A stretch of 64,000 nt of DNA, taken from NCBI RefSeq assembly GCF_037042905.1, contig NC_087245.1, forward strand, positions 26,476,001-26,540,000. The letters are read 5' to 3'. A model generated the notes under the pieces. That model did not search any database, was not told where the DNA came from, and was given only the letters and a program-made list of their open reading frames with translations. This DNA comes from Lytechinus pictus. Lineage: Eukaryota. Of the stretch, positions 1 to 60,790 are shown one piece after another (position 1 is the first letter of the stretch; each line of letters begins with the position of its first letter). The translations under genes were made by a program, and so were the position numbers.

Positions 1-597
1 TTTTTATGCCCCCGCAGACAGTCTGGAGGGGGCATTAAGCGTTGCCCCTGTCCGTCCGTCCCTTCACTTGATTTCCGCGCAATAACTCGAAAAATATTTT
101 TATAGATTTTAAAGATTTTTGGTGTGTAGGTAGATGACACCAAAATACAGGCTAAGTTTGAATTCGGAGTCCGCAGGTCAAAGGTCACAGCTCATTAAAT
201 ATGCGAGTTGGTTTCCGCATGATAACTTATGAAATATTCAACAGATATTGAAAATGTTTGGGTGTGTAGGTAGATGACACCAAACTACAGGCTAAGTTCG
301 AATTCGGCGTCCGCAGGTCAAAGCGCACAGCTCATTATACACTACTCAAAAAAAGTTAAGGACCACTTTTTAAAACGTACATAAAGATTTTATACAAGGT
401 GTTTTATTTCTGGAAATACCTCAGTACAACTGTCCTAAATGTCCTTAAACACGCTGTAATCAATTTCACGCATGGGTGGTTTCAGTTGTTGCACAATGTC
501 TCTCGCATCACTGCACATCCTGAAAAGTGGGCCCCGAGGGGTATCAGCTACCGACATGAAGTGGTAAAAACGAATGTCTGAGTGTCTTTCAGGCAGT

Positions 598-1635
598 TCA
601 GTAACGAGTGTAACGAGTGTGACCACCTCCTGCAGCAATAACGGCTTCACAGCGCTGTCTCATGGAGCTGATGAGGCGATTGATGTCTCTGACGTCCAGT
701 GCATCCCATGCAGCCTCCAGAGCCACACCCAGCTGCTGCAGTCCAAGTGGATGGGCTTCGAGCTGCTCGAGACTCCTCCCCATCATGTCCCAGACGTGCT
801 CTATCGGGTTTAAGTCCGGGGACCTCGCTGGCCACTCCATACGCTCAATCCCCTGGCCCTCAAGGAACTCGGTCACCACCCTAGCTCGGTGGGCACGGGC
901 ATTGTCATCCATGAAAATGATGTTTTGTCCCACATTTTCTGCAAATGGCACCACTATAGGTTCAAGGACCTCATCCCTGTACCTCACTCCTGTCATTGCT
1001 CCCCCTGGGACCACGTAGAGACGAGTACGGTTGGCGTAGGTGATGCCTCCCCACACCATGACGCTGCCTCCCCCATAACGGTCATGTTCTGCAATACAGG
1101 GGTCTGCAAATCTCTCTCCTGGTCGCCTCCAGACTCTCGAACGTCCATCATTGTGGTCAAGGGAAAATCTGCTCTCATCTGTGAACAGAACTCTACGCCA
1201 TTGCTGTCTGGTCCATCTGACATGCTCCCGGGCCCAGTTGAGACGAATTCTTCTGTGAGCAGGGGTGAGTGGGACACACTGAGCTGGCCGTCTGGCATGC
1301 ATATTGGCTCTGTGAAGTTGGTTACAGATTGTTTGAGTGGAAACAATCACTCCAGTTGCTGCAGCGAAGTCATTGTTGAGGCGGCGTGCACTGTGAAAGC
1401 GGTTGCGGAGGCTGAGATTCGTCAAGTAGCGATCATCTCTAGGGGTTGTCGAAACTGGTCGGCCACTGCGGGGTCTCTCGGAGTATAGCCCTGTCTCTCG
1501 GTGTCTTTGATTTGCTCTGCTAATGACACTGTGTGACACGCCCATCATTCTGGCTACTCTTCGCTGACTGAGGCCAGCTTCCAGCATCCCTAGGGCTCTG
1601 GCTACATCTGTTTCACTTAGGTGGTGTCTTGGCAT
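598..1635 (-). CDS. Tc1-family transposase (DD34E), apparently intact, 345 aa
   Basis: ATG at 1635 (MPRHHLSE...). N-terminal HTH, RSGRP linker, VLFTDESRF, FMDDNARAH, WPARSPDLNPIEHVW with 34 residues between the second D and the E, GGHTRY terminus. No stops. Confidence 0.93.
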   Translation of the reverse strand: MPRHHLSETDVARALGMLEAGLSQRRVARMMGVSHSVISRANQRHRETGLYSERPRSGRPVSTTPRDDRYLTNLSLRNRFHSARRLNNDFAAATGVIVSTQTICNQLHRANMHARRPAQCVPLTPAHRRIRLNWAREHVRWTRQQWRRVLFTDESRFSLDHNDGRSRVWRRPGERFADPCIAEHDRYGGGSVMVWGGITYANRTRLYVVPGGAMTGVRYRDEVLEPIVVPFAENVGQNIIFMDDNARAHRARVVTEFLEGQGIERMEWPARSPDLNPIEHVWDMMGRSLEQLEAHPLGLQQLGVALEAAWDALDVRDINRLISSMRQRCEAVIAAGGGHTRYTRY

Positions 1636-2160
1636 TGCTGTTGTAGGCAAGTTGTTGATTGTACAGACTAAAGACGGAAAATGCTTTGGAAGACACTTGT
1701 CTTATGGCCCACTGCAATGATGCCAGAGACATCATGAAAGAACTGCATGTGTGAAATTGATGTCATTGTGTTTGATGGCATTCTGGACAGCTGTATCTTG
1801 GCATTGCTATTGTCAGCAAGTTGTTGATTGTAGAGACTAAAGACAGAAAATGCTTTGGAAGCCACTTTTGTACGGGCACATTGCAATGATGCAAGAGACA
1901 TGAAAGAACTGCATGTGTGAAATTGATTTCATTGTGTTTGATGGCATCCTGGACAGCTGTATCTTGGCATTGCTGTTGTCAGCAATTTGTTGATTGTAGA
2001 GACTAAAGACAGAAAATGCATTTGAATCCACATTTGTACCACTTCACAATGGGCCCACTTTTCAGGATATGCAATAATGCGAGAGACATCATGCAACAAC
2101 TGAAACCACCCATGTGTGAAATTGTTACAGGGTGTTTGAGGAGATTCAAGACAGCCATAT
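1628..2160 (-). repeat. Loop of the fold-back: Tc1 5' leader with ~167-bp tandem triplication and a partial diverged 5' TIR
   Basis: GGCATTGCT...TTGTTGATTGTA.AGACTAAAGAC.GAAAATGC recurs at 1631, 1800 and 1966. Segment 2051-2154 aligns with mismatches to the inner TIR at 3239-3345. Confidence 0.8.
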
Positions 2161-2164
2161 TTGG

Positions 2165-3175
2165 GTGAAACAGATGTAGCCAGAGCCCTAGGGATGCTGG
2201 AAGCTGGCCTCAGTCAGCGAAGAGTAGCCAGAATGATGGGCGTGTCACACAGTGTCATTAGCAGAGAGACACCGAGAGACAGGGCTATACTCCGAGAGAC
2301 CCCGCAGTGGCCGACCAGTTTCGACAACCCCTAGAGATGATCGCTACTTGACGAATCTCAGCCTCCGCAACCGCTTTCACAGTGCACGCCGCCTCAACAA
2401 TGACTTCGCTGCAGCAACTGGAGTGATTGTTTCCACTCAAACAATCCGTAACCGACTTCACAGAGCCAATATGCATGCCAGACGGCCAGCTCAGTGTGTC
2501 CCACTCACCCCTGCTCACAGAAGAATTCGTCTCAACTGGGCCCGGGAGCATGTCAGATGGACCAGACAGCAATGGCGTAGAGTTCTGTTCACAGATGAGA
2601 GCAGATTTTCCCTTGACCACAATGATGGACGTTCGAGAGTCTGGAGGCGACCAGGAGAGAGATTTGCAGACCCCTGTATTGCAGAACATGACCGTTATGG
2701 GGGAGGCAGCGTCATGGTGTGGGGAGGCATCACCTACGCCAACTGTACTCGTCTCTACGTGGTCCCAGGGGGAGCAATGACAGGAGTGTAGTACAGGGAT
2801 GAGGTCCTTGAACCTATAGTGGTGCCATTTGCAGAAAATGTGGGACAAAACATCATTTTCATGGATGACAATGCCCGTGCCCACCGAGCTAGGGTGGTGA
2901 CCGAGTTCCTTGAGGGCCAGGGGATTGAGCGTATGGAGTGGCCAGCGAGGTCCCCGGACTTAAACCCGATAGAGCACGTCTGGGACATGATGGGGAGGAG
3001 TCTCGAGCAGCTCGAAGCCCATCCACTTGGACTGCAGCAGCTGGGTGTGGCTCTGGAGGCTGCATGGGATGCACTGGACGTCAGAGACATCAATCGCCTC
3101 ATCAGCTCCATGAGACAGCGCTGTGAAGCCGTTATTGCTGCAGGAGGTGGTCACACTCGTTACACTCGTTACTGA
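2165..3175 (+). pseudogene. Inactivated inverted copy of the same Tc1 transposase
   Basis: Starts within codon 7 (no ATG). 8-bp deletion (CAAATCAA) near 2266 causes a frameshift, and AGG->TAG gives a premature stop at 2789-2791. Otherwise near-identical to the left copy. Confidence 0.92.
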
Positions 3176-4282
3176 ACTGCCTGAAAGACACTCAGACATT
3201 CATTTTTACCACTTCATGTCGGTAGCTGATACCCCTCGGGGCCCACTTTTCAGGATGTGCAGTGATGCGAAAGACATTGTGCAACAACTGAAACCACCCA
3301 TGCGTGAAATTGATTACAGCGTGTTTAAGGACATTTAGGACAGTTGTACTGAGGTATTTCCAGAAATAAAACACCTTGTATAAAATCTTTATGTACGTTT
3401 TAAAAAGTGGTCCTTAACTTTTTTTGAGTAGTGTATATGCGAGTTGGTTTCTGCATGATAACTTGAGGAATAATCAATAGAATTCAAAGAATTCTTGTGT
3501 GTAGGTAGATGACAGCAAAATACAGGCTAAGTTCGATTGCAAAGTCCGCAGGTCAAAGGTCACAGCTCATTATATACATGTATGCAAGTTAGTTTCTGAA
3601 TATAGTAACTTAGGGGATAATCAACAGATTAACGAAATTATTGGTGTGCGAAGTTTTCTACACGATATTAAGTTCAATCATATTAAATGAATTTTTGATC
3701 GCGTTAAGCGGGGGCATCTGTGTCCTTTTGACACGTCAAATTTCTAGTTTAATTGTTTTTTTACATAAGCACATAAAAAAGATTGGACACATTGATTGCC
3801 AACTTCACGTAACGCTTTGCATCGATTTATGTGTAAAATAATTTTAGTGCCTAGTCTTTCCCTTGTAGTGTCTTTGATATGAACATAAATCGCCCTCTTT
3901 AGACGAAAAATTTGAAAAAAGGCGAGTCAGCTCAATTGTCCTGTCCATTGTTCGTCAACGAGAAGAAAAATCAGAGCTTAAATGTATGTATTTGAGGAAT
4001 ATTAGCGGAAATTTGATTCATATCGTTCGGTAATGTTCATAGAATAATGTTATTCTATTTAAAATCTAAAAGCTACAATATGTATTTTTAAATCTGCAAG
4101 TGTTGCATGCGCCGTGCCTGCGCTTTTCTGTGCACGACGGCATGTAATGCACCCATGGGTGGCTCATGTCTGATGTCGCCATCTCCAAGCATAAATTGTA
4201 GTTCTTCCTTCACATCTTGCTTCTCCTTGGCAATAGTTCTTTCAAGCATATCTTTATTTTTTTTCCTGATTTTTCATTTTAG

Positions 4283-4395
4283 GCAATTTCTAAGTTACAT
4301 TGGAAACAGCAAAGTGAGGAATACAAATCAGAAATGCATTTTGAAGACCAACATAAAGCATGACGGAACTGCTCCTGCAGTTCACATTAATTATG
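4283..4395 (+). CDS. MRPL53: Mitochondrial ribosomal protein L53, internal coding exon
   Basis: ttttag|G...TAT G|gtatg. (R)QFLSYIGNSKVRNTNQKCILKTNIKHDGTAPAVHINY matches the recalled MRPL53 motif RTFL..VSSEKVRSTNLNC.V..DVRHDGSEP.VDV.F. Confidence 0.88.
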
Positions 4396-4849
4396 GTATG
4401 TTTGAGTACATGTATGTATCACAATTACAACTCTTTAAAAAAATGTTTTTTCAAAGTTTTCAAGTCTGGGAATACTATTTCAGTATTACTCTGATTGAAT
4501 TAGCTCACCATAAAATGGAAATGAAATATCACTTTGTAAACCTATTTCAATGTTTGACCTGCAGTTACTAGTGAATGATATTTAACATGTTCCAGCTCCT
4601 GAATCAAGAAATCTTAATTTCTCTATTTACTATAGGTTGTTACTTCTCAATCATACAAACTCATTTACATCATGATACCACCCCACTGAAAACTCAATCA
4701 GTTATAAATTAAACATCTAAAAATATTCCTGAAACTCTGTGAAGTTCATCATAAAAAAGTCAGATTATAAATGCAAGAGAAGATTGTAGGAATCATCAAC
4801 ATTTTGCACTTGTCTTAAGTATCAGACTACTGCTGCTAAAAGCTTTGGG

Positions 4850-5480
4850 GTATCAAGGTCAAGGGTAATAAGTCACAGTGTTAGAGTAAAAATGTTGTCA
4901 CGATAAATGAAGAACAGTTTTAATCAACTTCGAAGCTTGGCTCATGTATGCTAGAGTGAAAGAAAATCTTTGGTGGTCATGAAGTCAAAAGGGTACAGAC
5001 GTCATATGAAATTTATTTTCTCTAGTGATAGATAACAAAAAATAAAAATTAGTTGATTATTCAACATTGTCATTTGATATGGGGGTAACAATTGAATATT
5101 CTGATGAGATTTTGGTTTAATAATAAGTTAAAATTCAAAGATCACAGAGGTCATTACCTATTAAAATTACTTGTTTTCATGATAAACTGAGGAACCGTTT
5201 GATGGATCAAATTCAAACTTGGTTCAACTGTTTTTTTGGGAATGACAATGATCTGATGTGATTTTGAGGTCATAAGGTCAAAAGTCATAGAGATCATGAC
5301 TCTACACATTATCTTTTAGATCCAACAAATCAGAATAATACTTGGCTCATGCATGTGTATTGGAGTGATTAGATTCTGACGGTTTTGAAATTGTAGCGAT
5401 GTTTGTTCTTAGATCTGGCAATGTTGAAAGCATCAATTTAAGACTGCATGCAGTTGACAAGCTATCCACTTATTTTAGTT
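4850..5480 (+). mobile_element. Degraded HINE-like tandem-repeat element in MRPL53 intron 2
   Basis: Degenerate ~145-bp periodic motifs (AAGGTCAAA.GTCA, AAACTTGG.TCA, TGATAA) resembling the repeat unit at 100-330. Confidence 0.4.
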
Positions 5481-5606
5481 GCTTCTACACAGAGCGATCC
5501 CATAAGTTCACTTGCCCTGTTAGGTCTTATAAATATCTGAAATTATAAACGTACATTCCTTCTTTTTTTTTACATAAAAATATTTTGCATTATTTTGATT
5601 TAACAG

Positions 5607-5719
5607 CTGATGGCCAGAATCTTCTCTTCAAGACCTCTCACCTGTCATTGTCTGAAATGGTCCAGAAATTTGCCGAATTGAATGAGATTAGGCTGAATAA
5701 AGAAACGTCAGAAAGCTAA
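5607..5719 (+). CDS. MRPL53: Mitochondrial ribosomal protein L53, last coding exon
   Basis: taacag|CT GAT GGC, phase-compatible with the previous exon. (A)DGQNLLFKTSHLSLSEMVQKFAELNEIRLNKETSES* matches the recalled DGHRLIMRGAHLTALEML motif. Confidence 0.85.
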
Positions 5720-8104
5720 CAGGATGAACACTTCACACGAGCACTGATAAGTGATAAGGATACAAGGTTTAAGTTGTGTGAAGTCTGCTTTTTATTCACT
5801 TCAGTAAGAAAAGAATGATTCCAATTCCATACACTGATGTGAATTTGGGAGTTGGGATATACAAGGAGTGAGATCTCTCTTGGAGATTACGTGTATTAAG
5901 TGTGAAGTGACATATTTGTGTGATTACAATTTAGCAAAAAGACAGGAAGTGTGCCAACCCATTGTGCTAAACATGGATATTCTTCTCCAGTAAGAGTTAT
6001 ATGATCCAATCTAATTGTCTTCCTGCTTGTAAGTCATAGAAATATCTAAAGCAAATCAGGAGTGATGCAGTTTGCATCAAGTAACAAGTACCACAAATTG
6101 ATTCATGGCAATTCTTTGCAGACTTCCTGCCCAAAAGATGTCAAAATTTTATGAAATGTGATTTGCATTTGAAATTTCAGTGAGAGATCCATGTTCATGA
6201 TTGAATGAAAAGTGTTGCTCTTTAGATTGCTGACTAGCCTCTTCACCAGTCGTGTAATACTATGAATTCTACATGTACAATTGAGAGTCATGTCGCCCAA
6301 TATACATTCAATACCTTCTAATAGCTGTATACAGCTTTCAGCAAACTTCTGAAATGTATTTGTAGGAAAAAGGTGTGAGTGTTATTGCTTCCAAAGAGTT
6401 TCATCTTTGTGAGCAGTGGTCAAGCAAAACTGTACATTTTCCAATCAGAGTGTAGTCTTAACGTAAATGTACTGGTTTTTTTTACTACATGTACATGTAC
6501 ATAATTGGATCGTGTGGCATATATTGTGGCATGTCAATCTTAAATGCCAAGGGAATATAAAGGGTAAACCAGTAGAAAAAGTAGAGAAAATAAAAATCAT
6601 GAGAAATCAGTGTTTGCAATTTATGCAATATTAAAAAGATGATATAAACACATATGTATGTTATGTTTTTGTATTCATTTTTAGAAAGTCTCATACAGTT
6701 TATACAGCATTCCAATATTAATGGAGAATATATTTGCACTCTGAACTGTTTTGCTGATAATAATCATGATATGTGCATACTAATTCTCAATTGTAATCGT
6801 GTGTTTGCTGTAAATAGTGTACATTGTATCAAAAGATAATTCAATGAACTCCTTGAGATCGGTTTGATTGGATTGAACAGGAAAACCAAGAAACAGATCC
6901 AATTATAATTTGATAAATCTTTTACACAATGAGAAATTTATCAGCATTTAATGCCATGGAGATTCTCCCAGTGGCAATGCAACCAAGATACGTGAGTCAC
7001 ACACATGAAAACTTCCCAATTACTTAAATCATAAATATTTTACTTAATATTATCTCAAATTAGAATACAAAATAGAAATTCATAAATAAAAAATTATAAA
7101 GCAAATTGCAACAAATAATATCCAACTATACAGAGCAAATCCCAGTTGTTTTGGTCCCTTAAAACCCCCAAACATGAAATTACTACAGTCACCTTGCTCC
7201 TGTCTGACAACCATGGGTGTCAATCGGTGTTCATGGGGGGGGGGGGGGGATGACCAACACAAAATTTGCTCATTGTGGGTGATCTAATCTAATTTTGTGA
7301 TATATTTTGACATAATATATATGAAAATGAAATATATATAAATTTCACCCTTTTTCTTTTCATTTTATTTCTTTTCTCCTTTCTTGGTAGTGAAACTTTT
7401 TTTTTTTTTTTTTTTGGGGGGGGGGCGGGGGTCCGTAAGACTGAAGTTATAAGTATGTTACTTTTTTCCTACAAGAATAGGTACTACATACATGTACAAT
7501 GTAAATGCAGGAGCTAGATCAAAATATGCGAGCATGAAGTGCGAGCTGAATTTTTTCAAAAAAAATTACCTGAAAATGAGTCATTTTGATAATAGCAAAA
7601 TTGATTCGTCATTCAAAAGGGTATTCAAATAAACAGGGCACACCCCATGCGCTAGGTTGCAGGAAGGGGTAAATTCTAATAAAGTTAAAAATTAACAGGT
7701 TCTATTTTATCCTGGAATTTTTGCTTTCTCCATCCATCTCATTCAAACTTTTTTTAGAGGAATGATTTCTCTCAATAACAATAAACAAGAGAATTCTGAA
7801 AAAAATTATGTTCATGTGCATGTGACAATCAATACTATCATCATCATGATCATAATAATCTTAATCTCTCCTTATCATTATCATACTTGACATATGCTTC
7901 ATCATAAATGTTGTGATGTTCTACCGTAAATTAATAGGGGGAGATGATAAAAAGGCAACCCCTCCACCTGCAAAATTAGGAGGGATATATCCTTGACTTT
8001 CCTTGGATTTTGATCGGCTGAAAAGCACATATGTCTTACTGTTACTATGTTGAAACTGTCGGATAAAACATCCTATCAGTCCTTTCATTAAACAGTCCAC
8101 AGAT

Positions 8105-38200: not shown

Positions 38201-41200
38201 AAAATCAAAACACAATAAATTTTGGAATGATGTCAAGGGTATGTAATAATTAAATTATAATCTAAATAAAAAGAAAATCTAGCTTTAAGAAGTCCTACAA
38301 AACAAAAAAGGGGTAACAGGCAATAAATGTAATGAGATCATATTGGTGATTTTGCAACAAAATGAGAAAGAATATTTCACTGGTTTGGTAACTAATTTTC
38401 ATGGCAACTTATTTTTGTTAGAGAATTTGAAAATAACAACAGTGCAATCTACACTAGTTTATCAAAAAGAAAAGACTAGGAACTGAAAAAAAATATTGAG
38501 CCTGAATAATGCACATTCAATTTACAGGTACTTAGAAAACTGACTGGATAGAATAGTGCCAGACTTTATATGTATTCAAGCTAAATTACAGCAGCAATGA
38601 TATAGCAATGTCTAATCTATATTAAAATGCTGGTAAAATATATGCGGGCACAGCTAAAGTGCACTTAGTCATATAAATAAAAATAAGCATATTGTGAAAG
38701 TGCAAGGATGAGAGATTATACTGCTTTACAAATAGCCAACATTTGATCCCTAAAATTCTTTTTAAATCCAGCCACAATATATATCATTGGCTTATGGCAC
38801 AGACAGCCTTAATAGAGTCATATCCAGAGTCTTATCATAAATCCAAATGTATTTCTTTTACATATTTTATACCGTAGTAATTTAACATGCTGGACCTTGG
38901 TGGTAGTAGATGAATTATCCATATACAACAAAATATTCAGAATATTATAAGGGGGGGGGGTGGGAATAATTCTGAAAAGATTTTGATTCATAGATTAAGG
39001 TCTATCTATATCAGAAACACAATGTTCAATACATATGCATTTTTGTAATTTATAGAAAATAGAAGATACATGTTTGATTTGCTATATTACCAGATTTACT
39101 CCCTCCAGCCTCGACTAATGTTACTAAACTTTCAGTCCTTAAGAAATCCATAATAATTCTTCCTACTAACCTTATAGTAAAGTCACACCTCATTTTGCCA
39201 TCTTAGTTTTTAAACATAGGCAGATTGTTGAAATCTTTATTAAAGATTATGATGCATTTTCCATATTATATTTGCTAACACTAATTAATCAATTCAATCT
39301 CTTGAATCCACACACAAAAAAATAATTTATTTCTTATTGTTGCTGTATTTTCTAAGAAATGTCTATAAAATCAATGACCCCCTTGACCAGAAAGCAATAA
39401 AGCAAATGAATATTTGGCAAAGCTAAAAGAAAAGAAAAATCACCTGATCATTATCAAGAGGAGATTCTTTGTTGTTAGAATGTGACTGGTCTGGAATACC
39501 TGTATTATCAGGCTTCTACCCAGATAGAATAATAGAAGATATACACATAAGAATGATACACATACACAATCAGTCATATCATCATCATTTTCAGCCTATA
39601 ATCTGCAGCCATTATCCTTGCTGTTATGAGTAAGATGTGGCAAGATAATCGTCTTTGCTGTAAGCAATGTGTCTGATGTGTTGAGACTATCTAATAGTGG
39701 ATGAGAAGGCAAAGTCAACCCTCTTATCCTTCTTTATATTTGATAAAGCTGCAGTGTCCACCTTAGATTATAGTCTACATTTTCATGAAATTTCCTAAGA
39801 GACCAAAACCAATTTCAAACAATTATTGAATATACATTTTAACATATTAGCAAGGTATTTTTAAAAAATCACATTTAATCACATACTCCTATCCCTCCAC
39901 AACAAAATCTATATTTTCTCTTTAAAATCTTGTTCAGGGAATTTGTGAAAATGATGATGATATGAACAAATAGATATATAAGGATAGATTTCATTAATAC
40001 AAAGGATCATCAGATTAATTGTGTTAATGGATGAAAAATTAGTGCATGAACTCCAGCATAACATTCTTACAGAATGAAATATAACATTAAAATTAATGTT
40101 ATATAGCACTGCCATGAGTTGTCTCTCCAGTATTACAGCCCATATCTACTGTATTTGAACTAGCGCAAATTAGACATGTCAAAGAAATTAATCCATGATT
40201 GAAGTGAGGGATTATATCCCTCAGTTTAAAATTCCAATGGTTTTTACTTTTAAGCTTATGATGAAAAGAGAGCAGTCTTTTAATCAAACCACAGATTTTG
40301 CATGACATGTAGAATATGCCTACACATCTTAATCGTTATTGCATTTGAATTAAGATTTTGATCATATCTATTCAGAGATTATCTGTTTTTCTTACAGAGA
40401 ACAGAAAAAACAGGAACATATGGTGCGTGTTTTCATAATAAAAATATCCACATAAACCTCCCAAACAAATAACATGAAAGTGAATCAGAAAGGTGCAAGG
40501 ATCACAGAAGCAAACCCCAAAAACTACCGTTAACAACCTTAATAGATTTTTATATCATACCACTTACAAGAAATTAATGTTTTTATTCTTGTTTTTTCTC
40601 TTTTTGTTTGGTTGATTCACATTATCCATAGAAAGAAAAAGTTTTGTTCTAGAAAAATTTTCGTTTTCAGAAATGAACTTGATTCCAAAGCCTTTCGTAG
40701 TAGGAACACACATTATAGGATATTTGTTTCATTTTCGAAACATAATATTCTTGGTTTGCACTCAGAATTGTTCAAAGCAAAATCATAGAGTGTTTCCTGT
40801 GAAAAAGAAAAGTTTATCAATGTCAGGTCTCTTTTCATAGCATTTGATATCAAAACTGACCCTTAACTTAAAATGATATGAATGTTATGGCCTTCTTGTT
40901 CTCAAAATGAAATTAAGGTTAGAAATGATATTGGATGCTTTATATACTTCCATGCTAGATTGTGTAATATATGATTGAAATTCAAATGAGGCTAAATTGG
41001 AACTTACTGAATCAGTTGCCTGTTCTTGAATGAAACCAGATAGCTTCAACTTCTGTTTCTCCTCATCTTCAGAATCAGAGCTAGATGAGCTGGAGTCTGA
41101 TCTATATCCATCTTCCTTCTCTTTCTTCTCTTCCTGCTCTTCATCCTTCTCCTCAGCATCCTTCTTTTCCTCTTCTTCCTTATCATTTACAGTTTCTGCA

Positions 41201-44200
41201 GCCTCCTGTTGTTCCTCCATTTCTTCTTTATCTTGACGTGAATCATTAATATTTTCCTCATTCTCCTCCTTTTTCTGTGCACTTTCTTCTTCTGTTATTC
41301 CTTGTTCTGACTCTCTATCTTGGTTGTCCTGGGTTGGTTCATCGACAGGAGCATCTACAGTATCCTCAAGAGGCACTTCTTGATGCACCTCACTGTCCTG
41401 AGCCTCTTGGGGAGCAACTTCATCTGCTGGATCTGCCTCATCTTTTGGACCTTCTTCATGGGGTTCACCTTTCTGTTGAGTCTCTACAGGACCTTCTGAC
41501 TGAATGTCCTGTGACTGTTCAACAACATCTTCCTGTTCAACTTCAGGGACTTCCTGTTCTTCTGGTATAGGATCTTCCCTTTCAGTAGTTGCTTCATCAC
41601 CTGCCTCATCATGTTCTTGTCCAGGAGCACTATACATAGTTTCCTGAGGATATTCCTTTTCATCTTTTTGCTGAGCCTCTGAGGCATCATCTTTTGGCTC
41701 TTCCAACTGCTCTATCTCAGGCTCAACAGGACTCTGGACTGGCATGTCCTCATCTTGTACACTCTGGGTATCCTTCTCAGCATCCTCGGCATTACCTGCA
41801 TCATCATCCTGTGGGCTGACTTCCTCCTTCTCCTCTTCTTCTTCAACCTGATCTCTTTCAATCTGTGCTTCCTGCTCCAAGGTATTTTCATCCAGGGTCT
41901 GTTCCTCGGCTTGATCAGCATCATCCTCATCATTCTCTCTAACCAAGGTAGCTTCATGGACAAGAACAGCTTCTTGAGGAGGAGGATCCACTTCCATTTC
42001 TGCAGTAACCTCTTGAGTAAGACTCTCTTCGAGCACTTCTTCCGTCTCCTCCACCTCATCTCTGGCACTCTGGCCGATGTCCCTATCTGAGTCTTCATCT
42101 TCCTTGACCTCAGCTTTGTCTTCCTTTTCATCTTCAACTTTTTCATCATCTGAATCTTTCAAAGTCTGTCTCTCAGCCTTCTCTCCCTTTTCATCCTCAT
42201 CAGCAGAGCTTGAAATCTTGAAATCAGCTTCAGATTCTGTATAGTTTCTTTGACCCTCCAACAGACTCTTCTTATCCTCGTCTTCTTCGTCGGAAGACAA
42301 GAGCCGGTTATCTCCCTCAGATGCACTAAACAGACTCCTCTCCTCCTCTTTGTCATCTTCTTTTTCTTCTGGTTCATCTTTTACTTCTTCCTCATCTTCT
42401 TTTTGAAAATTCTCCTCCACTTCTTCAACGACACTCTTGTTTTGTTCACTGTCTGAGCCATATTTTTCTTCTTGAACCACCTCTTCTTCTTCTTTCTCCT
42501 CTTCTACTTCTTTTTCAGATTCCACCTCAAGGTCACTTTTCTCACCATCATCCTCTTCAACTTCCTCTACAACAACTTCTTTCTGCTCTTCTTTTTCTTC
42601 CTCTTCTTTTTCAGATTCCACCTCAAAATCAGAATCGCCATAATTGTCTTCCGTCTTCTTGTCTTCTGCATGAATAGACTCTTTTTCACTCTCCACTTCT
42701 GATGAGAAGCCATCTGATTCATAATCTGTAAGATGATGATTAAAAAAAGGGGAAAGTGGAAAAGGATATTGAATGACCAAAATGGTACTAATTAGTATCG
42801 AAAGACATAAGTAACAGTAACCAGTAATTCAATACTGTTACCGTCATCATAAAAAATTATTACCACTGCACGCTGTGCATTTATCATCGACAACATTATT
42901 ACCAATATCATCATTATCAACAGTCATAATTACACTTGCAACTGCACTGCTCACCACTACCATTACCATCATCATTATCATCATCATCATAGTCATCATC
43001 ATCATCATCAGCATCACAATCATCAAAAAGGACTGTTATGAATGTACTATCATCATTATGCACTTCGACAGCAATCGGGGGGGGGGGGGGGAGGGGGACA
43101 TGTCTCGCCCTTAAATTTTGTACAACACTCTATGGGAGGTAATTCCCCCCCCCCCCCCACCAAAGGAACCCAAAATCTTAAGAAACGGCCATGCATAATT
43201 ATGCGTCATTATCCTTAATCAAATCATTCTCACAAGCAACAACTTACCTAAATAAAATCTCAAGTGGGTACACATCTTGGTTGTGAAATTCTTATCTTGA
43301 GAGGAAATGTGTATTACCACAGTTTTTATATAGGCAACACTGTCTTTCATCATTCATTTAGTTTGATTTTTTCTTTACATTGTGCAAAAAAGAAAAAGGT
43401 ACAAAAACAAAACACCTTAAATGTTTAATCTGATGAATAACCAAAGAAAGCATCGGCCAAACAAGTTGGAAAAGTGCAATTTCACCACAAGTCTTGGTGT
43501 TAACTTTTGACGGGGTAATTAGATTTCAGCATTTGGCCCCAGTTGTGTATCTTCTTAGGCATGCAATTTATACCAAGTACCTCAATATGAAGAATAGAGT
43601 AGAGCACCTCTGCTAAAATAATATTATTTTGCACTCACCTTTCTCCTTCTCTTTATCTTCATCATCTTTTTGCTCTTCATCTTCTTCAAACTCATCGTCC
43701 TCGTAACCATCATTTGCTGCAAACCAAAATCACAAGGATATACTGTTTACAGTGTTCATAGCAAATGTAATTTTTAACACTGCACATTTCCTCAGTGGTA
43801 ATTTGAACTACAGTACTGTATTCATCACCAAGCTGTTTTACAGTGGGGTGGGGTGGGGTCCAATGCATGGTTCTGGCAACTATTCCACAAGAGTACTTAC
43901 ACATTAAACCATAATATTTCATATTGGTTAACTTTTAGTTTTGTTAGAAATCCATTGACTTAGAATTCCCAATTACATCCCCCTCTCTTCCTCCATCTAT
44001 ACGCCTCCCTCCCTCTCACCTTCTCACCTTCTCACATTCCCCCATTAAATCTTTTCATATATTTCTCCCTCCCCCTTTCTTTCTCTCACTCCTCTCTCTT
44101 TCTGCTTTCTCCCCCTCCTCTCTCACCACTGGCGTAAATCCTTGCGTTACACCTATTGTCGGGGGGGGGGGGGTGATCTAATGTTCACAGTGACATCATA

Positions 44201-50200: not shown

Positions 50201-53200
50201 GACTAAGGTACTCGTGCTCTAATCTGGGTTTCCCTAATCTTGCCCTCATGCATCTATTTGGCAAACTAAGGAATTCAATTTCACAAGGTGTAATGGGTTG
50301 GATTCTAGCAAAGAAATAATATTGGTATTGTGGCTAATTTTGTGATATGATATGCCAAAAATCATTTGTCCAGTCAAAATGTGCATCAAAATGCAAAGAT
50401 GGAACCTTTCTCATCCAGCAAATGGATGACAGCTTTAGAGGTATAATGTCACGGAAACCATGTATTTTGGCTCTACCGAGATTCCATCAACTTAAATATG
50501 ATATAAATTATGTGTGATTGCAATTCCTTTGGGGACCATTTCATAAAAGACTTAAAAAACTTTAGCAACTTTGCCAATATGGTGACTACCATCATGGTAA
50601 CAGGGCTCTGCAGCTAACGACAAATAAATTTTCCATGGTGATTGCCAAAATGAAAGCTACCATAATCAAAAGTCCTCATGACACATGCCCTAGGATGTGT
50701 AATTGATGCTATGATGGTCCCCCATCACTAATCTGTAATCCCTCCAAGGTCAAATGTCCTGTGAAAATTTCTTCTGAATTCACCCGATATATCCTTCCTT
50801 CCCCTTGACCCCTTTCTGCCCTCTTCACCTGTGCTTTCTGACCTGGTTTCCCTTCAGGTTTAACCTTTGACCTTTGACCTCTGCTCTTAGCCAAATCACC
50901 CGATTCCATTTTCTTATCTTCTACCTTACTAGAAGTATTTGAAACCTGTCTTTCATAATCATTGTGACTGTATGGTGTCTTTGTTTTTTGCTTTTTAACT
51001 TTCGAGCCATTCTTGCCTTTGTCTAATACAGGTAGATTATTTTTCTGCTTTGATTTACTCCTTGTCTTTGTTGTTGTTTGTGTGATTATACCCTTGTACC
51101 GTCTTTCTTTGGTTGTTTTAGGACCTGATACAGCTTTAGCGGGGTTTTTCTCTTTAAACTGGTTACTTTCATTGTCTCTCCTCCCTCTGATTACTTTCTT
51201 TTTCTCAGCACATACCCTACTAACTCCAGTTTTAGTATTAACACTTTCCACCGGCTCATTACACTTACTACTCTCACTCCCCCTTGATGACTGCTGATTA
51301 TCTATTCTTTTCTTTGTCAAACCGCTTCTCTTTTTGTCCGATCCACTGGACACATTTCCTGTTTCCTCAATGTTTTCTGAACCGGAGGAGCTTTCAAAGC
51401 TGTTACCATATGTAACATCACTCCCACTGGAATCAACTGAATAACTGCTATCCCCAGCATCTCCCTTATCAGAGCCAATGGAATTAGAATCACTGGCATT
51501 CCCATCATCAGAGTTTACTCCCTCTGGGATTTCACTGCCATTGCCGTTCTTACAATTAGACTCACTCCTGCCGTTGTTAGTTTCCCCATCACCCTTTCCC
51601 TTGCCACTCTCCTCACCTTCCTCTTCCATTTGAGTTGATTCCTCTTTTCTTCCTTCATCTTCTTCATCCTCCTGCGGTTCTGTCTGGGTAGACATACCCG
51701 CATGCTCTGGTTCCGGCTCTGGCTCTGGTACGATAGTATCCGTCTGAACGTCCTTGTATCGCTGCCTCTCTCTCCTCGCAAACTCTGCTTCTACTAGACA
51801 TCTGAAGTAATGAATAAACAACACCAAAAACAATATAATAATGGGATGCTGAAGGCTTGGTGGGGAAGTTTGAATAATGTGCAAAGATATTTCTGACTAT
51901 CATGCAGTGAATAAGATTGAAAATTCAATCTGAAAAAAAAATCAGAGTGCTTTGGACCTGAAAGGAAAATTTGCTATATTAAATAAACATTGGGTTGGAT
52001 TGAAAAAAAAAATCTTGAATCTTTCAAATTGAACATTAAATCTTATTCACAGGGTGGTAGCCAAAAATGTCTTTGAATTAATTGCAGAAATGGTACAATC
52101 TCTACATGTTATCATACAAAAGATAAAAAGGTAATCAATTATAACATCCCATCCCGTCTGGATGTAATATTTTATTTGATTTTAATTCTTTCTCATATTT
52201 GCTATTGATATATAGGTCTATCAATATTGGATTTTGGTTTGCGTGGGCACTTTCACCACTCCCTGTTGAGCAATCCAGTGAGTTTCCATACTCAATTGCT
52301 GTATATACAACATTAAATTTTGCATCCTACTGGGTACCCATTTAATACCTGGGTAGAGAGTGGTAAAGTATAGATTGATGCCTTGAATGCTACCTGAGAA
52401 ATCATATGACATGAAATAATTGAATACTTACTTGTAGCAAGGAGATGATCCATGGACCCCAATGAATTTGAAATGTCCCTTTGAGCCTCCAAGCAACGCT
52501 CCCGGAGTATACTTATACTCACAGCATGCACTTAGACGAAGAACCTGAACACGGTTGACAAAGAACGTCACGCTGAATGGGTAACCACGGTGACGACGTG
52601 ACACAAAGATCAGATCATCTGGTGGAGGAAAATCGCCACAAAAGAGGCATTAATATCTCAAGCAAAAAAAAATTTTAGGAATAATACACAAGCTGATATT
52701 ACATGTTTTATTTTTCACCTTTCATAACAATGTAAAACACAGAAAAGACATTGGAAGAAAAGAATGATAATAATAATATTCAATTTGTACATGTAAACAT
52801 AGATGTAACATACACACAGTTCTAAGCACTTTACAGATATATAACAATCGACCTGCTCATAACATTTTTAATTGCCTGCATGCAATGTATGCACTTTTTC
52901 AATAATTCATTACTGCTTTACCTCACTTAACTTAAATAAGATGAAGTAAGCTTTAATGGAGTAAATTCTTAACAAGAACTAATCTACTTAAATAAGATTC
53001 TTAATCATTTTGATTCCCATCAGCTTACATTGAAATCCCATCTTTCTAGATTATAAGTAACTATCCACTTTTAGGCATGTAAGGTAAAATGCACTCTCAT
53101 GTTAAAACGGTGAAAATTTGAGATCTTACATTTAGCCCCCAAAACAGTCACCAGTAGTGTGTAAAGTTGTGCGTAACTAAGGAACATCCTTATAAAATGT

Positions 53201-56200
53201 CTCCCCATTCATCCCGATACTTACTCCCTTTCTCGGCAAAGCCCTGAAACACCACAAGGTTCTCGCCTCCGCAATGCTGCTGGTAGACTTGAATCTCGTC
53301 TCTCTTATCCTCCCTCTCATACTGAAGTTTGAGGCCGGTACCACGGTACCTCACCGTCACATCACACATACTCTGAAGCTGGGTGGCATGGGGGTAGGCT
53401 GGCTCCTTCCGATGGAGGGCAAGGGAACCCTGAGTGAACAAAATACAGTGAAAACCTGCTTTAGCAACAACTTGCATAGAAGGACAACCTGTCCATGCAA
53501 ACCATTATTTTGGTTTCCCTTGAACAGTCCCCCCCCCCCCAACTGACACATGTATTATATGGACCTGTCCAGAAAGGCCAGCTATTTATAAAGACCATTG
53601 TATCATCATCATTGGGTGGTCTGTATAGACAGGATCGACTGTATTTACAGAAACATGTTTATAAAGACCATTTTATCATCATCATTGGGTGGTCTGTATA
53701 GACAGGATCGACTGTATTTACAGAAACATGTTTATAAAGACCATTTTATCATCATCATTGGGTGGTCTGTAGAGACAGGATCGACTGTATTTACAGAAAC
53801 ATGTTTATAAAGACCATTTTATCATCATCATTGGGTGGTCTGTAGAGACAGGATCGACTGTATGTACAGAAACATGTTTATAAAGACCATTTTATCATCA
53901 TTATTGGGTGGTCTGTATAGACAGGATCGACTGTATTTACAGAAACATGTTTATAAAGACCATTATATCATCATCATTGGGTGGTCTGTATAGACAGGAT
54001 CGACTGTATTTACAGAAACATGTTTATAAAGACCATTTTATCATCATCATTGGGTGGTCTGTATAGACAGGATCGACTGTATTTACAGAAACATGTTTAT
54101 AAAGACCATTTAATCATCATCATTGGGTGGTCTGTATAGACAGGATCGACTGTATTTACAGAAACATGTTTATAAAGACCATTTTATCATCATCATTGGG
54201 TGGTCTGTAGAGACAGGATCGACTGTATGTACAGAAACATGTTTATAAAGACCATTTTATCATCATTATTGGGTGGTCTGTATAGACAGGATCGACTGTA
54301 TTTACAGAAACATGTTTATAAAGACCATTATATCATCATCATTGGGTGGTCTGTATAGACAGGATCGACTGTATTTACAGAAACATGTTTATAAAGACCA
54401 TTTTATCATCATCATTGGGTGGTCTGTATAGACAGGATCGACTGTATTTACAGAAACATGTTTATAAAGACCATTTAATCATCATCATTGGGTGGTCTGT
54501 ATAGACAGGATCGACTGTATTTACAGAAACATGTTTATAAAGACCATTCTTCTTGACCACCTTTGGTGGTCCTTATAGGCAGGCTAAAGTATTAGAGGAA
54601 TCTGCATGCATATATGAGCCAAGTTTGAAGTTGAAACCTCAAACGGTTCTTTTAGGTTTGATATCAGAAGAATGTAGAATTGGTATTCAGGTATTGATGA
54701 CTTCTGTGACCTTAGACCTCATGAAACCTAATACTTATTAAATCATCAGCACTCCTATGGTATAAAATATAGTATTCTGTGACCTACTCTACAAAAAAAA
54801 ATATCCTAATCTGTTGAACATTTCAATATCTTACCAACAATCTGTAATAAAATTTACCTTATTCGATCTGGGCCTATAGCCCCGGCCATTTTTGGAGACT
54901 ACTCCGCCTCCAGTCTTGTTCCTTGGTGATCTTTGACCCTTTGACCTGGCCGCAGGGGGTCGCGGGGTCACGTCTGGGGAGTATGGAGAGAGACCTTCTT
55001 TCTCATCAGGTCTCAGGTTCAAAGAGATCCTGTGTAAAATCTTAGGGTCCAACTGGAGAGAAGAAAAAAAAAGACGATCTGAAATCAATTCACTGAAACA
55101 TTTTATTTAAAGACATAGAATTTAGTCTTCTCTGTTTGGTTGATAGATGCTCAAATGTATATTTACACTTCCAATTTTTATTTCAATTTCATTTTGTTAA
55201 TTTTTGTTCATCAATATAGAAAATGACGGAATATTATGCATACATACATATACTGTAGTAGATATTATACTTTTACCTTTGGATAATGAAAGTTTATCCT
55301 GGAAACCACTTTCCCATTATCATTTACATTTTGAAGGTCAGTTGTAGAAATTGAATGAATGTGACGAATGAAAAACCTTCTTTTTGTTGACTATCTTCTA
55401 TTCATTTCATGCAATGTGTTATTTGAAAATATAATTACCTCTCTGAGTGCAGGGGAGTCGACTTCACCATTACTGCTTGTATCAGATCTGTCTGACCTAG
55501 CAGATTCACGATGTACAGGGAACCCATCCTGGTCAACATATACCACACCCTATTAAATAAACAGATATATTGCATACATGTTAACGTATACCATACAATT
55601 TAACTTCATGTACATTAATATACATTTATACAGTGCTTTTACACTGTCAAATTTGCTCTGAGCCATTCAGCAAGGATATGACAGTTTATAATAGTCAGTG
55701 AAAAAATTACTGACCATTTGTTTCATGAAATGGTTTTCAGTTAAACATATACCATACTATATCAAGAATTAAAACCGACAAAAAAGTATTAAAACAGACA
55801 TTCTATTCTGGTACATTATGCAACACAAGAGAAGTATCCTTTTGCTAGCTGCAATTTTTTACATGTAATTTTCTTCATTTTTTTGTTTCCATCTGTATGT
55901 GATCGTGATTGTATGAGATAAAAAGAGATAAACAAATCATTATGGGGTACAAAACTAGTCTGCAAGTACAGACTAATATTTGACTCTTTAACCAATTATA
56001 CCATGTCTAGAGCGAAGAGTACATGTAGATGGCAATCTTTCTGTCTGGTAGATGGCAATCTTTCTGTCTGGTAGAGGCAGCTATATTACATACAGCTATA
56101 GTCTCACTACTTCAGACTCTGTATTATGCACTATGTGAATTGCACTAAAACCAAAGGGGCAAAACCGGTACAGCATACAGGTCTAGAAAGTTAGAACTGA

Positions 56201-60059: not shown

Positions 60060-60790
60060 GAATCTGGCAGAAAGTGTAAAATTTGGCATACAGGGGTATT
60101 TTGGGGCGCTGATTAAAAAAATTGCCGGCCCCAAGCGATTTTACCATCGGGTTGGCTGCCATTTTGAAATGCAAGATGGCCGCCATGAAAAATCATTAAA
60201 TGTCATTTTCTTGAGTTTTACATGGCATGTGACACTGAAATTTGGCATATAGGGGTATTTTGAGGCACTGATTTCAAATATTACCGGCCCTCAGCAATTT
60301 GACCATTCGGCCGGCGGCAAAATGGCCGCCATCTTGAAATCCAAGATGGCCGCCATGAAATATCGTTGCAATCATTTTCTCGAGTTTTATATGAACTGCG
60401 GTATTGGAATTTGGCATATAGGTTTAATTTTGGGCGCTGATTTCAAATATTGCCGGCCTCAAGCGATTTGACCATCGGGTCAGCCGCCATTTGAAATCAA
60501 AGATGGCCGCCATGAAAAATCATTGAACTCATTTTCTTGAATTTTACATATGTGCCACTAAAATTTGTAGTATATGGGTATCTGGGTGCGTTAATAAAAA
60601 AAATTGCTGGCTCCAAGGAATCTGACAATTGGTCGGCGGAAAAATGGCCGTCATCTTGAAATCCAAGCTGGCTGCCATAGAAATTTTGCAATTATTTAGT
60701 TGAGTTTTATATGATCTGCGGCATTGCACTTTGACATATAGAAGAAGTGTGGGGAGCTTATTTCAAATATTGCCGGCCCTCAGCGATCTA
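60060..60790. repeat. ~165-180-bp tandem repeats with GCCATCTTG/CAAGATGGC palindromes
   Basis: TTTGGCATA.AGG, GCCGGCC and CAAGATGGCCGCCATGAAA recur four times. Confidence 0.8.

Follow-up and report, generated by a model that had tools for sequence, protein, structure and literature searches.

A mobile right-right fold-back derivative of a Tc1 transposon in intron 1 of MRPL53 in Lytechinus pictus

The stretch of DNA analyzed here (64,000 nt; hereafter the window) begins inside the first intron of MRPL53, which carries a palindromic Tc1 derivative inserted into a host repeat. The features are listed below in window coordinates, except for exon 1.

G000:C1:26475182-26475276, outside the window: MRPL53 exon 1
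1..4282, + strand: MRPL53 intron 1 (5006 nt), the start of which lies before the window
1..337, + strand: left part of a HINE/DINE-1-like host repeat (subterminal inverted repeat, GTCC microsatellite, ~140-nt central repeats)
338..339, no strand: left TA target-site duplication
340..3433, no strand: right-right (3'/3') fold-back derivative, 3094 bp, of a 1896-bp Tc1 element
340..1616, - strand: left arm, i.e., right terminal repeat (340-534) and almost complete transposase ORF
598..1635, - strand: unbroken ORF for a 345-aa DD34E transposase
1617..2164, - strand: loop of 548 nt with the parent start codon region, 5' UTR, and inner left terminal repeat
2165..2166, no strand: fold-back junction (element 79/629) with 2-nt microhomology
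2165..3433, + strand: right arm, element 629-1896 inverted, with the right terminal repeat at 3239-3433
3154..3177, + strand: stretch containing a 9-bp tandem duplication common to both arms (also 596-619)
3365..3370, + strand: the sole + strand AATAAA within 1-4400, a possible intronic poly(A) signal 3' of both arms
3434..3435, no strand: right TA target-site duplication
3436..3745, + strand: right part of the same HINE/DINE-1-like host repeat (second subterminal inverted repeat, 3' stem-loop)
4283..4395, + strand: MRPL53 exon 2
5607..5719, + strand: MRPL53 exon 3, coding part through the stop codon

The exon at 4283-4395 belongs to MRPL53 (Pfam PF10780, E 9e-7) and starts with an AG acceptor in mid-protein, as described in the original prediction. 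No N-terminal exon had been found between 3750 and 4283, and three-frame translation of 3720-4283 on the + strand agrees, yielding none. Exon 1, which the prediction placed upstream, was identified 819 bases ahead of the window. This exon corresponds to residues 2-31 of the mammalian mL53 protein in PDB (E 8e-5), and its phase-2 GT donor together with exons 2 and 3 gives an open frame of 106 aa. This exon was recognized by reading the sequence; a scan of the 39 kb upstream with an overly narrow motif missed it, and the Pfam search for the MRPL53 family recovered exon 2 only, exon 1 alone giving no match. Splicing of exons 2 and 3 was detected in run X1, apparently from the same species (GT..AG joint 4394/5606). 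Because exon 1 lies upstream of the window, the element is within intron 1, as had been proposed, and a duplex of 1269 pairs could arise within the pre-mRNA.

In the window element, a DD34E Tc1, an inverted copy of the element's right part stands in place of the left end. Aligned to the parent, it runs from position 1896 to 79 on the minus strand and then from 629 to 1896 on the plus strand; the left end lacks its outer 78 bp (positions 79-195 of the left terminal repeat remain in the loop), and the inverted copy of the right 1268 bp leaves the element with two right ends. The 5' UTR in the loop contains three tandem repeats of 166-169 nt each. Inverted repeats were found at 336-1506/2267-3437 (99%) and 1515-1616/2165-2266 (100%). 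Direct alignment of the arms gave exactly seven substitutions (left/right: 502/3271, 571/3202, 983/2790, 984/2789, 1029/2744, 1319/2454, and 1326/2447) and one 8-bp deletion, located in the right arm after 2266, which agrees with the earlier count by eye of about seven substitutions, an 8-bp deletion, and a ~550-bp loop. The arms had been read as inverted transposase copies; the inverted ~1.27 kb is real, but the arms are not equivalent. The left arm is part of a nearly whole minus-strand parent element (340-2166) and the unbroken ORF runs through it, whereas the right arm begins at codon 7 without an ATG and is broken by a frameshift and stop at 2789-2791. Nested insertion of one copy into another was ruled out, as the junction coincides with no element end and no TA. 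The flanks of the insertion rejoin into an intact unit of the host repeat; its HINE/DINE-1 likeness comes from a comparison by eye with features given in PMC4067079.

Assignment to the Tc1 family (IS630-Tc1-mariner) is based on the DD34E motif, a paired-type HTH, a single ORF of ~340 aa, terminal inverted repeats, and the TA duplication. The 345-aa ORF matches PF13358 (DDE_3) and PF13936/PF01498 (N-terminal paired-type HTH), and the triad is D153, D244, and E279, with a D-to-E spacing of 34 residues. Relative to the family protein, the window transposase carries R104C and R106Q (second HTH domain) as well as a duplication of three residues at the C terminus. The unequal terminal repeats of the parent (~195 bp) are identical over the outer 34 bp and 84% alike overall.

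The window copy is one of about 145 right-right fold-backs in the genome (a figure derived from end-motif counts) and is itself a mobile form. Genome-wide, the end motifs matched 423 right ends and 134 left ends. The first 100 right-end matches listed included, by eye, 38 inverted right-right pairs and 24 singles; no left-left pair was seen among the 100 left-end matches listed. We examined 41 right-right copies in detail (L097-L100 on C4 and L029 were left out, as was L061 from the normal set; L007 and L028 were skipped at one step as fold-backs). TA flanks were present in all 41. The copies measure 1.4-3.1 kb (median 2566 bp, largest 3112 bp) and mostly exceed the parent in length; arms of at least 1 kb were found in 25 of 41, and a full transposase ORF (at least 342 aa) is kept in 27 of 41, as it is in 16/26 normal copies. 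In no copy does the short arm begin upstream of element position 606. Twenty-five junction classes were distinguished, five of them with 2-10 copies each at different sites, and at least five junctions are underivable by central deletion from any other sampled junction. Microhomology of at least 2 nt occurs at 12 of 18 insertion-free junctions compared with 16% expected (p=3e-6), a test that leaves out 12 of the 30 junction rows, which had insertions or nearby changes. The 79/629 junction of the window has one other copy, the sister L041 (G000:C7:3619140), and the four genome-wide matches to the 9-bp duplication are both arms of the window copy and both arms of L041. Since this junction also sits at an independent TA site on C7, the right-right form is mobile; two TA sites with a common junction and a private duplication mean that the window form has transposed at least once. 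Variant 1479C is present in both arms in 5/5 carriers whose two arms cover it (three junction classes), and L051, L063, L071, and L074 each have a both-arm variant missing from their classmates where sampled. Arm-to-arm conversion, as an alternative to joint origin, could also put variants in both arms.

Divergence is 0.175% for normal copies and 0.167% for right-right arms, indicating one age with Poisson scatter and no overdispersion. Steady activity up to the present was rejected (P=0.0002), and no young tier was found in the age analysis of normal and right-right copies. The common age of normal and mirror copies argues that the burst has stopped. Near-identical copies are the best-scoring tail of a single Poisson. 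The idea that the family jumped on after this insertion, and hence was not silenced, was dropped: the window copy (7/2536) does not exceed the mean age (P=0.14). Contigs from another haplotype of the same intron differ at 35 of 1331 nt (2.6%). With an age of 0.17-0.26%, the insertion is ~10x younger than this haplotype split and is therefore probably polymorphic, not fixed. Its private substitutions include five CpG transitions out of eight, vs. 22/148 in a further 37 copies (p=0.004 in a post hoc test; L041, L048, and L069 were left out of the count, as loop repeats misalign).

In our judgment the window copy is most probably (probability about 0.7) a mobile, routine by-product of a recent Tc1 burst that landed in MRPL53 intron 1, a polymorphic passenger with no role as a dedicated silencer. 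Formation could have started with a transposase-made break at the left end of an element. Repair of the break would then switch template to the right end, on the same molecule or the sister chromatid, and copy inward, with closure by microhomology end-joining; the class may have formed repeatedly in this way. Right-right forms would survive and spread, and left-left forms would be missing, if the right end were the better transposase substrate. This preference is deduced here from the census alone; it has been measured for Mos1, where activity rises 26-fold with two right ends and falls 50-fold with two left ends (PMC4505599). Mboumar-9 favors the left end and Drosophila mariners replace the opposite end (PMC4161770), both of which count against the right-end explanation.

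A different origin would be one or a few head-to-head dimers, created by adjacent inverted insertions, mobilized through the outer pair of right ends, and cut down in size by successive central deletions. Long palindromes tend to undergo central deletion, and 20 of the 25 junction classes are derivable from another by such a deletion, only five being minimal. Deletion repair would explain the microhomology equally well, and a model of this type has already been proposed for Rpmar17 (PMC4678618). However, no full or near-full dimer is present among the 41 copies, and three backgrounds (the 9-bp duplication, 1479C, and the common type), each in both arms, call for at least three founders or conversion. 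All classes are as old as normal copies, which leaves little time for serial deletion. Taken together, we regard dimers as an unlikely source, though one that deserves serious attention; a large number of the junctions could have arisen secondarily from a few founders through central deletion, which would speak against repeated origin. It is scarcely credible that the palindrome is an assembly artefact produced by a fold-back read chimera. The window junction is crossed by no read or contig in the sequencing runs checked; nevertheless, the arms are set apart by the seven substitutions and the deletion, the TA duplication is clean and lies within an intact host repeat, the identical junction occurs at the independent C7 site, and one junction class has 10 copies at unrelated sites.

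For a passenger insertion of this kind, MRPL53 pre-mRNA in carriers would cross both arms and could fold into a ~1.27-kb nuclear duplex, to be removed together with the intron by splicing. The duplex would likely be A-to-I edited and degraded, and its contribution to family-wide silencing would be small at most. For the + strand pre-mRNA, 1262 Watson-Crick and 2 G-U pairs over 1269 positions were computed. The dsRNA that had been predicted is thus borne out in pairing capacity (1264/1269 arm positions), but no read with the alleles or junction of this copy was recovered. Alleles or junction private to the window copy were absent from 4/4 sequencing runs; contigs drop rare variants, so this absence is weak evidence. 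No fold-back junctions were seen in the RNA runs. Joints at 2142/2684, 2040/2724, and 2070/2165, reported as lying on opposite strands, were rejected as transcribed fold-back junctions: the loop is reversed in the window, so they join sense sequence to sense sequence in copies that are normal or internally deleted (element 103->1156, 205->1196) and are no evidence of hairpin RNA. A T>C change at 3310, in the right terminal repeat, was detected in the RNA-type runs X1 (42/71 contig depth), X21 (3/21 reads), and X24 (5/9), in the latter two confined to one mate direction. The DNA-type run X9 lacks the change, and C occurs at this place in no genomic copy of G000; the pattern fits A-to-I editing of paired ends. 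A change of the 2105 type is carried by one genomic copy. Places with A>G or T>C outnumbered those with G>A or C>T by 21 to 2 in X21 and by 19 to 4 in X24; this excess is no more than a lead, as five of the places are the window copy's own changes and most rows are unshown, and both runs are apparently from another species without matched DNA.

The original prediction saw a candidate killer of its own family in this locus. A Mu-killer-type structure, with an inverted transposase duplication and two copies of one terminal repeat, is present (as defined in PMC3440606). A dominant silencer of this type, fed by MRPL53 read-through, would be favored by the position in intron 1 of a housekeeping gene, by the 1264/1269 pairing, by the AATAAA at 3365 behind both arms, which could allow a stable polyadenylated hairpin, by the end of the burst, and by the excess of CpG transitions, which suggests methylation of the window copy. 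However, gene-body methylation of a housekeeping gene predicts CpG decay equally, and animal Dicer is mostly cytoplasmic whereas the intronic hairpin is nuclear and spliced out. With about 145 similar copies (25 of the 41 sampled with arms of at least 1 kb), a mobile sister, a probably polymorphic insertion, and private alleles or junction in 0/4 runs, the killer claim is unsupported; RNA of the family with common alleles is also present in X1, at a contig depth of 69 vs. 25-31 for the MRPL53 exons (a poor measure of level). We consider a single dominant silencer very unlikely. Collective self-silencing, in which many intronic right-right copies jointly made long dsRNA and ended their own burst, is compatible with the passenger explanation of the window copy. 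One age, Poisson scatter, and the lack of a young tier despite retained ORFs point in this direction, as does T>C at 3310 in RNA-type runs; given one age and the rejection of steady activity, something halted the family, one candidate being hairpin RNA. In C. elegans, read-through fold-back dsRNA silences Tc1 (reviewed in PMC3878927). On the other hand, a burst followed by a stop is typical of mariner lineages, most of them without such hairpins (PMC4161770), the possible editing site falls in a part, the terminal repeat, that is paired in normal copies as well, two of the three runs with the change are the unmatched X21 and X24, and the RNA runs yielded no fold-back junction. Collective silencing is therefore improbable, though not far-fetched. 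Equally doubtful is a self-ending Tc1 invasion, in which right-right palindromes outcompete the parent for transposase while keeping the gene, and the intronic ones then silence the family. Shutdown would come once about half of the family consists of kilobase mirror images, including landings in introns such as that of MRPL53; if true, an animal transposon family would have generated its own multi-locus counterpart of Mu killer.

End replacement has already been published for mariners. In Rpmar17 and Rpmar49 of Rhodnius prolixus an inverted 3' part replaces the 5' part, creating very long terminal repeats, and the 227 rearranged Rpmar17 copies have variable breakpoints and were mobile after rearrangement (PMC4678618). 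The window element shares end replacement with transposase sequence in both arms and subsequent mobility. Rpmar17/49 are DD34D mariners, nearly all below 1 kb and described as non-autonomous (PMC4678618), whereas the copies studied here are DD34E Tc1 elements, 27/41 with the whole ORF, and have about equally many normal copies alongside. The window element is not MITE-like (shorter than its parent and non-autonomous): it measures 3094 vs. 1896 bp and its ORF is unbroken, which makes it a variant of the end-replacement derivatives and not a plain member. What is new is the existence of still-coding derivatives larger than the parent, with strict right-right polarity (for the 100 left-end matches listed). 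The Dromar7/11/28/36 MITE sublineages of Drosophila also have a systematically replaced end and unusually long inverted repeats, but the 3' end is replaced by the 5' end, and they are short and non-coding with a single breakpoint per sublineage (PMC4161770). In Goblin, a MITE from the Tc1/mariner element Ozma of Aedes aegypti, right subterminal sequence flanks a microhomology junction, and the same mechanism was proposed, a template switch from left to right repeat in gap repair followed by end-joining; Goblin differs in its 213 bp, 54-bp repeats, one junction, and non-coding nature (PMC3814204). Engineered Mos1 right-right transposons likewise have two identical preferred ends instead of an unequal pair, but they are artificial with 28-bp ends (PMC4505599), in contrast to the natural kilobase arms here. 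Maize Mu killer resembles the window copy in its partial inverted duplication of the transposase gene and in having one terminal repeat twice; it is read through from a flanking host gene, and the element here lies within an MRPL53 intron. Mu killer was defined genetically as a dominant locus and its silencing has been demonstrated (PMC3440606), whereas the window copy is one of many mobile copies, entirely intronic, and known from sequence alone. The text on Bari elements (PMC4877112), in its available part, contains nothing close to right-right derivatives.

As a probably polymorphic intronic insertion, the window locus singly carries little weight. The origin of Tc1/mariner end-replacement derivatives has been called elusive (PMC4161770), and the family provides a clean natural data set on this question, with 25 junctions, one age, a microhomology signature, and right-right polarity. 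It also bears on what ends bursts of animal DNA transposons, since activity ceased at the same time in normal and mirror copies. Because each arm carries alleles of its own, small RNAs derived from a hairpin can be traced to individual loci.

The window copy, a 3094-bp fold-back Tc1 derivative at 340-3433, was found to be as originally predicted: direct alignment of the arms gave 7 substitutions and one 8-bp deletion, the loop between them is 548 nt, and a TA is present on both sides. The following features define it and its surroundings in the window (G000:C1:26476001-26540000).

Features of the window copy and of MRPL53
340-1616, minus-strand element part: left arm, from inverted-repeat comparison
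2165-3433, plus strand: right arm, inverted copy of element positions 629-1896
102-201, 242-341 and 3477-3576: ~140-nt host repeat units, from recurrence in the window sequence
G000:C1:26475182-26475276, 819 bases before window base 1: MRPL53 exon 1
4283-4395, plus strand: MRPL53 exon 2 (Pfam PF10780, E 9e-7)

The parent element is 1896 bp long and encodes a 342-aa DD34E transposase between ~195-bp terminal repeats (outer 34 bp identical, 84% alike overall); its 5' UTR is made of tandem 166-nt repeats. In the window copy the parent, shortened by its first 78 bp and lying on the minus strand (340-2166), meets an inverted copy of positions 629-1896 at a joint with 2 nt of microhomology. The 345-aa ORF of the left arm is unbroken and carries two changes in the second HTH domain, R104C and R106Q, both CpG transitions, which may impair DNA binding by the transposase. 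In the right arm the ATG is missing, and a stop codon and a frameshift interrupt the reading frame. Compared with other copies, the window copy alone carries all 7 substitutions that separate the arms, the 8-bp deletion and one change in the loop. Removal of the element and one TA makes a ~140-nt host repeat unit whole again. The host repeat around the insertion has subterminal inverted repeats, a GTCC microsatellite, central repeats and a 3' stem-loop; compared by eye, these resemble the features listed for HINE/DINE-1 elements as outlined in PMC4067079. The 5' UTR (element 206-621; window 1564-2039) comprises three tandem 166-169-nt units, each with a degenerate version of the inner terminal repeat; one unit was lost in L041, L078, L080, L089 and L096, and one gained in L094.

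MRPL53 exon 1 aligns with residues 2-31 of the mammalian mL53 protein (E 8e-5; PDB, where seven of the eight sequences listed are mL53), and the three exons form one open frame of 106 aa with agreeing donor, acceptors and phase. The exon 2-3 splice was observed in sequencing run X1; the exon 1-2 splice is that which we infer, exon 1 lying outside the compared stretch (2040-5900). Since exon 1 is upstream of the window and exon 2 begins at 4283, the fold-back sits in the 5006-nt intron 1, where the original prediction had put it. Computed pairing of the arms in plus-strand pre-mRNA gave 1262 Watson-Crick pairs, 2 G-U pairs and 5 mismatches, so the predicted capacity for a near-perfect duplex of >1.2 kb holds at the sequence level. 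A ~30-nt tandem repeat array (L031:6940-7580) was noted about 1.1-1.7 kb upstream of exon 1.

Such copies, in which an inverted right part replaces the left end (right-right copies), are common. With one mismatch allowed, a right-end-specific 31-mer matched the 812-Mb genome 423 times and a left-end-specific one 134 times, giving about 145 right-right copies if normal copies each have one of both ends. The first 100 right-end matches listed fell into 38 inverted pairs, their members 1.4-3.1 kb apart, and 24 unpaired matches, and the one unpaired match checked (L079) is a fold-back too; no left-end inverted pair was found among the 100 left-end matches listed. The 38 pairs and three more copies, on C7, C9 and C14, were examined (n = 41). 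All 41 have TA flanks, 27 retain an intact ORF of at least 342 aa, sizes range from 1416 to 3112 bp, and the arms reach at least 1 kb in 25. They represent 25 junction classes, of which five have more than one copy (10, 4, 3, 2 and 2); these were obtained from 30 junction rows by script, five being merged by hand where a nearby change or later deletion was the sole difference. The window copy shares its class with one other member, L041 on C7, and a genome-wide motif search found a 9-bp duplication in both arms of these two and nowhere else. Across the 25 classes the short arm begins no earlier than element position 606, four bases 5' of the start codon. The 5' UTR thus never stands in both arms of one copy, perhaps because of a size limit near 3.1 kb. 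At L037:1790-4284 (G000:C1:7055289-7057783), a left end has lost its outer 16 bp and gives way to some 600 bp of other sequence, after which comes a short terminal repeat with TA; this left end seems to have been rebuilt beyond captured filler. Three copies are interrupted within one 8-bp stretch of the right terminal repeat (element 1787-1794). The interruption measures about 580 bp in two of them (L049 and L062) and about 3.8 kb in L089; either a second transposon targets this stretch or it inserted once in a common ancestor.

Microhomology of at least 2 nt was present in 12 of 18 insertion-free junction rows against 16% expected (p = 3e-6), and none of the 18 was blunt; such an excess is a signature of microhomology-mediated end-joining. 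In carriers whose two arms both span the site, the 9-bp duplication and variant 1479C are found in each arm, as expected if the template was the same molecule or its sister, although apparent later arm-to-arm conversion in four copies weakens the same-molecule argument. We favour repeated template switching, as proposed for Goblin (PMC3814204): a transposase-made break would be followed, during repair, by a switch from the left end to the right end, many times over. The model put forward for Rpmar17 (PMC4678618), in which a head-to-head dimer undergoes serial central deletion, is a less probable route. Five junctions cannot be derived by central deletion from any other junction in the sample. 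For Mos1, activity relative to the natural pair was reported to be 26-fold higher with two right ends and 50-fold lower with two left ends (PMC4505599); by analogy, the strict right-right polarity would be most simply explained by the right end being the better end.

Over positions 629-1896, normal copies differ from the common sequence at 56 of 31957 nt (0.175%; n = 26, all exact left-end matches on C1-C3 except one) and right-right arms at 155 of 92591 nt (0.167%; 82 arms). No overdispersion was detected in normal copies (p = 0.52) or arms (p = 0.30), and steady activity to the present was rejected (P = 0.0002). Thus normal and mirror copies arose in one short burst, now ended, and the notion that the family kept moving and was therefore unsilenced was dropped. 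The age of the window copy (7/2536) does not significantly exceed the family mean (P = 0.14). CpG transitions make up 5 of the 8 substitutions private to this copy, compared with 22 of 148 across 37 further fold-backs (p = 0.004, post-hoc test); gene-body methylation of a housekeeping gene would account for them.

Four of 24 listed runs were compared with window 2040-5900, and no fold-back junction was seen in RNA over this stretch. X1 looks like same-species RNA, as it contains MRPL53 exon 2 with zero differences and the spliced exon 2-3 joint. Low-depth contigs of the intron in X1 depart from the window at 35 of 1331 nt (2.6%), ten times the insertion age, so the insertion is probably not common to all haplotypes. 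X21 and X24 (raw poly(A) reads) contain the transposon with few differences and almost zero MRPL53 exon reads at 90% identity, and seem to be from another species. At 3310, T is replaced by C in X1, X21 and X24, a change absent from the DNA-type run X9 and from every genomic copy in the assembly; it is possibly A-to-I editing of paired terminal repeats, though not assignable to the window copy and uncontrolled by matched DNA. In X21 (organism E), a 2142/2684 joint (13 reads, 9 starts) marks an expressed internal-deletion derivative of about 845 bp, element 1-103 plus 1156-1896. An annotated transposase of the sea spider Nymphon striatum is 91% identical (305/337 aa), and a 1242-nt contig of X9 (organism B) agrees with the window everywhere but at 5 sites private to the window copy; the MRPL53 exon matches in that run, by contrast, differ at 5/102 and 5/76 nt. 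These similarities are signs of a recent horizontal spread of the family.

The fold-back Tc1 in MRPL53 intron 1 is genuine and well formed, and our main reading, at a probability of roughly 0.7, is that it is polymorphic and belongs to a large right-right class that is mobile. Replacement of the 5' part by the 3' part is described for Rpmar17/Rpmar49, with variable breakpoints and 227 copies (PMC4678618), end replacement of opposite polarity for Dromar sublineages (PMC4161770), and a comparable derivative for Goblin (PMC3814204). The window copy shares their structural and mobility features but is neither short nor non-coding, and is therefore classed as a variant of these end-replacement derivatives. 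It had been proposed as a special locus silencing its own family, like maize Mu killer. It shares the layout of Mu killer (PMC3440606), but is not placed among such loci, which silencing defines; a model of read-through silencing of Tc1 in C. elegans has been reviewed (PMC3878927). We consider a special role for this locus very improbable: it is one of many right-right copies, and the X1 Tc1 contigs have the common allele at every private position, with none crossing the window-copy junction. That the right-right class collectively ended the burst draws its main support from the shared, ended burst itself, and is rather unlikely; burst-then-stop is described as typical of mariner lineages in general (PMC4161770). 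In the literature searched (mostly titles and abstract openings, with few subscription journals), we found no report of a larger-than-parent, still-coding right-right Tc1 or of an animal intronic transposase hairpin as silencer.

Elsewhere in the window, a tandem array of a 73-bp unit spans about 1 kb (53585-54583) and a 420-bp inverted repeat pair (92%) lies at 60711-62142. Long open frames on the minus strand at 40888-42828 and 50712-51896 (647 and 395 aa) are probably large exons of a minus-strand gene.
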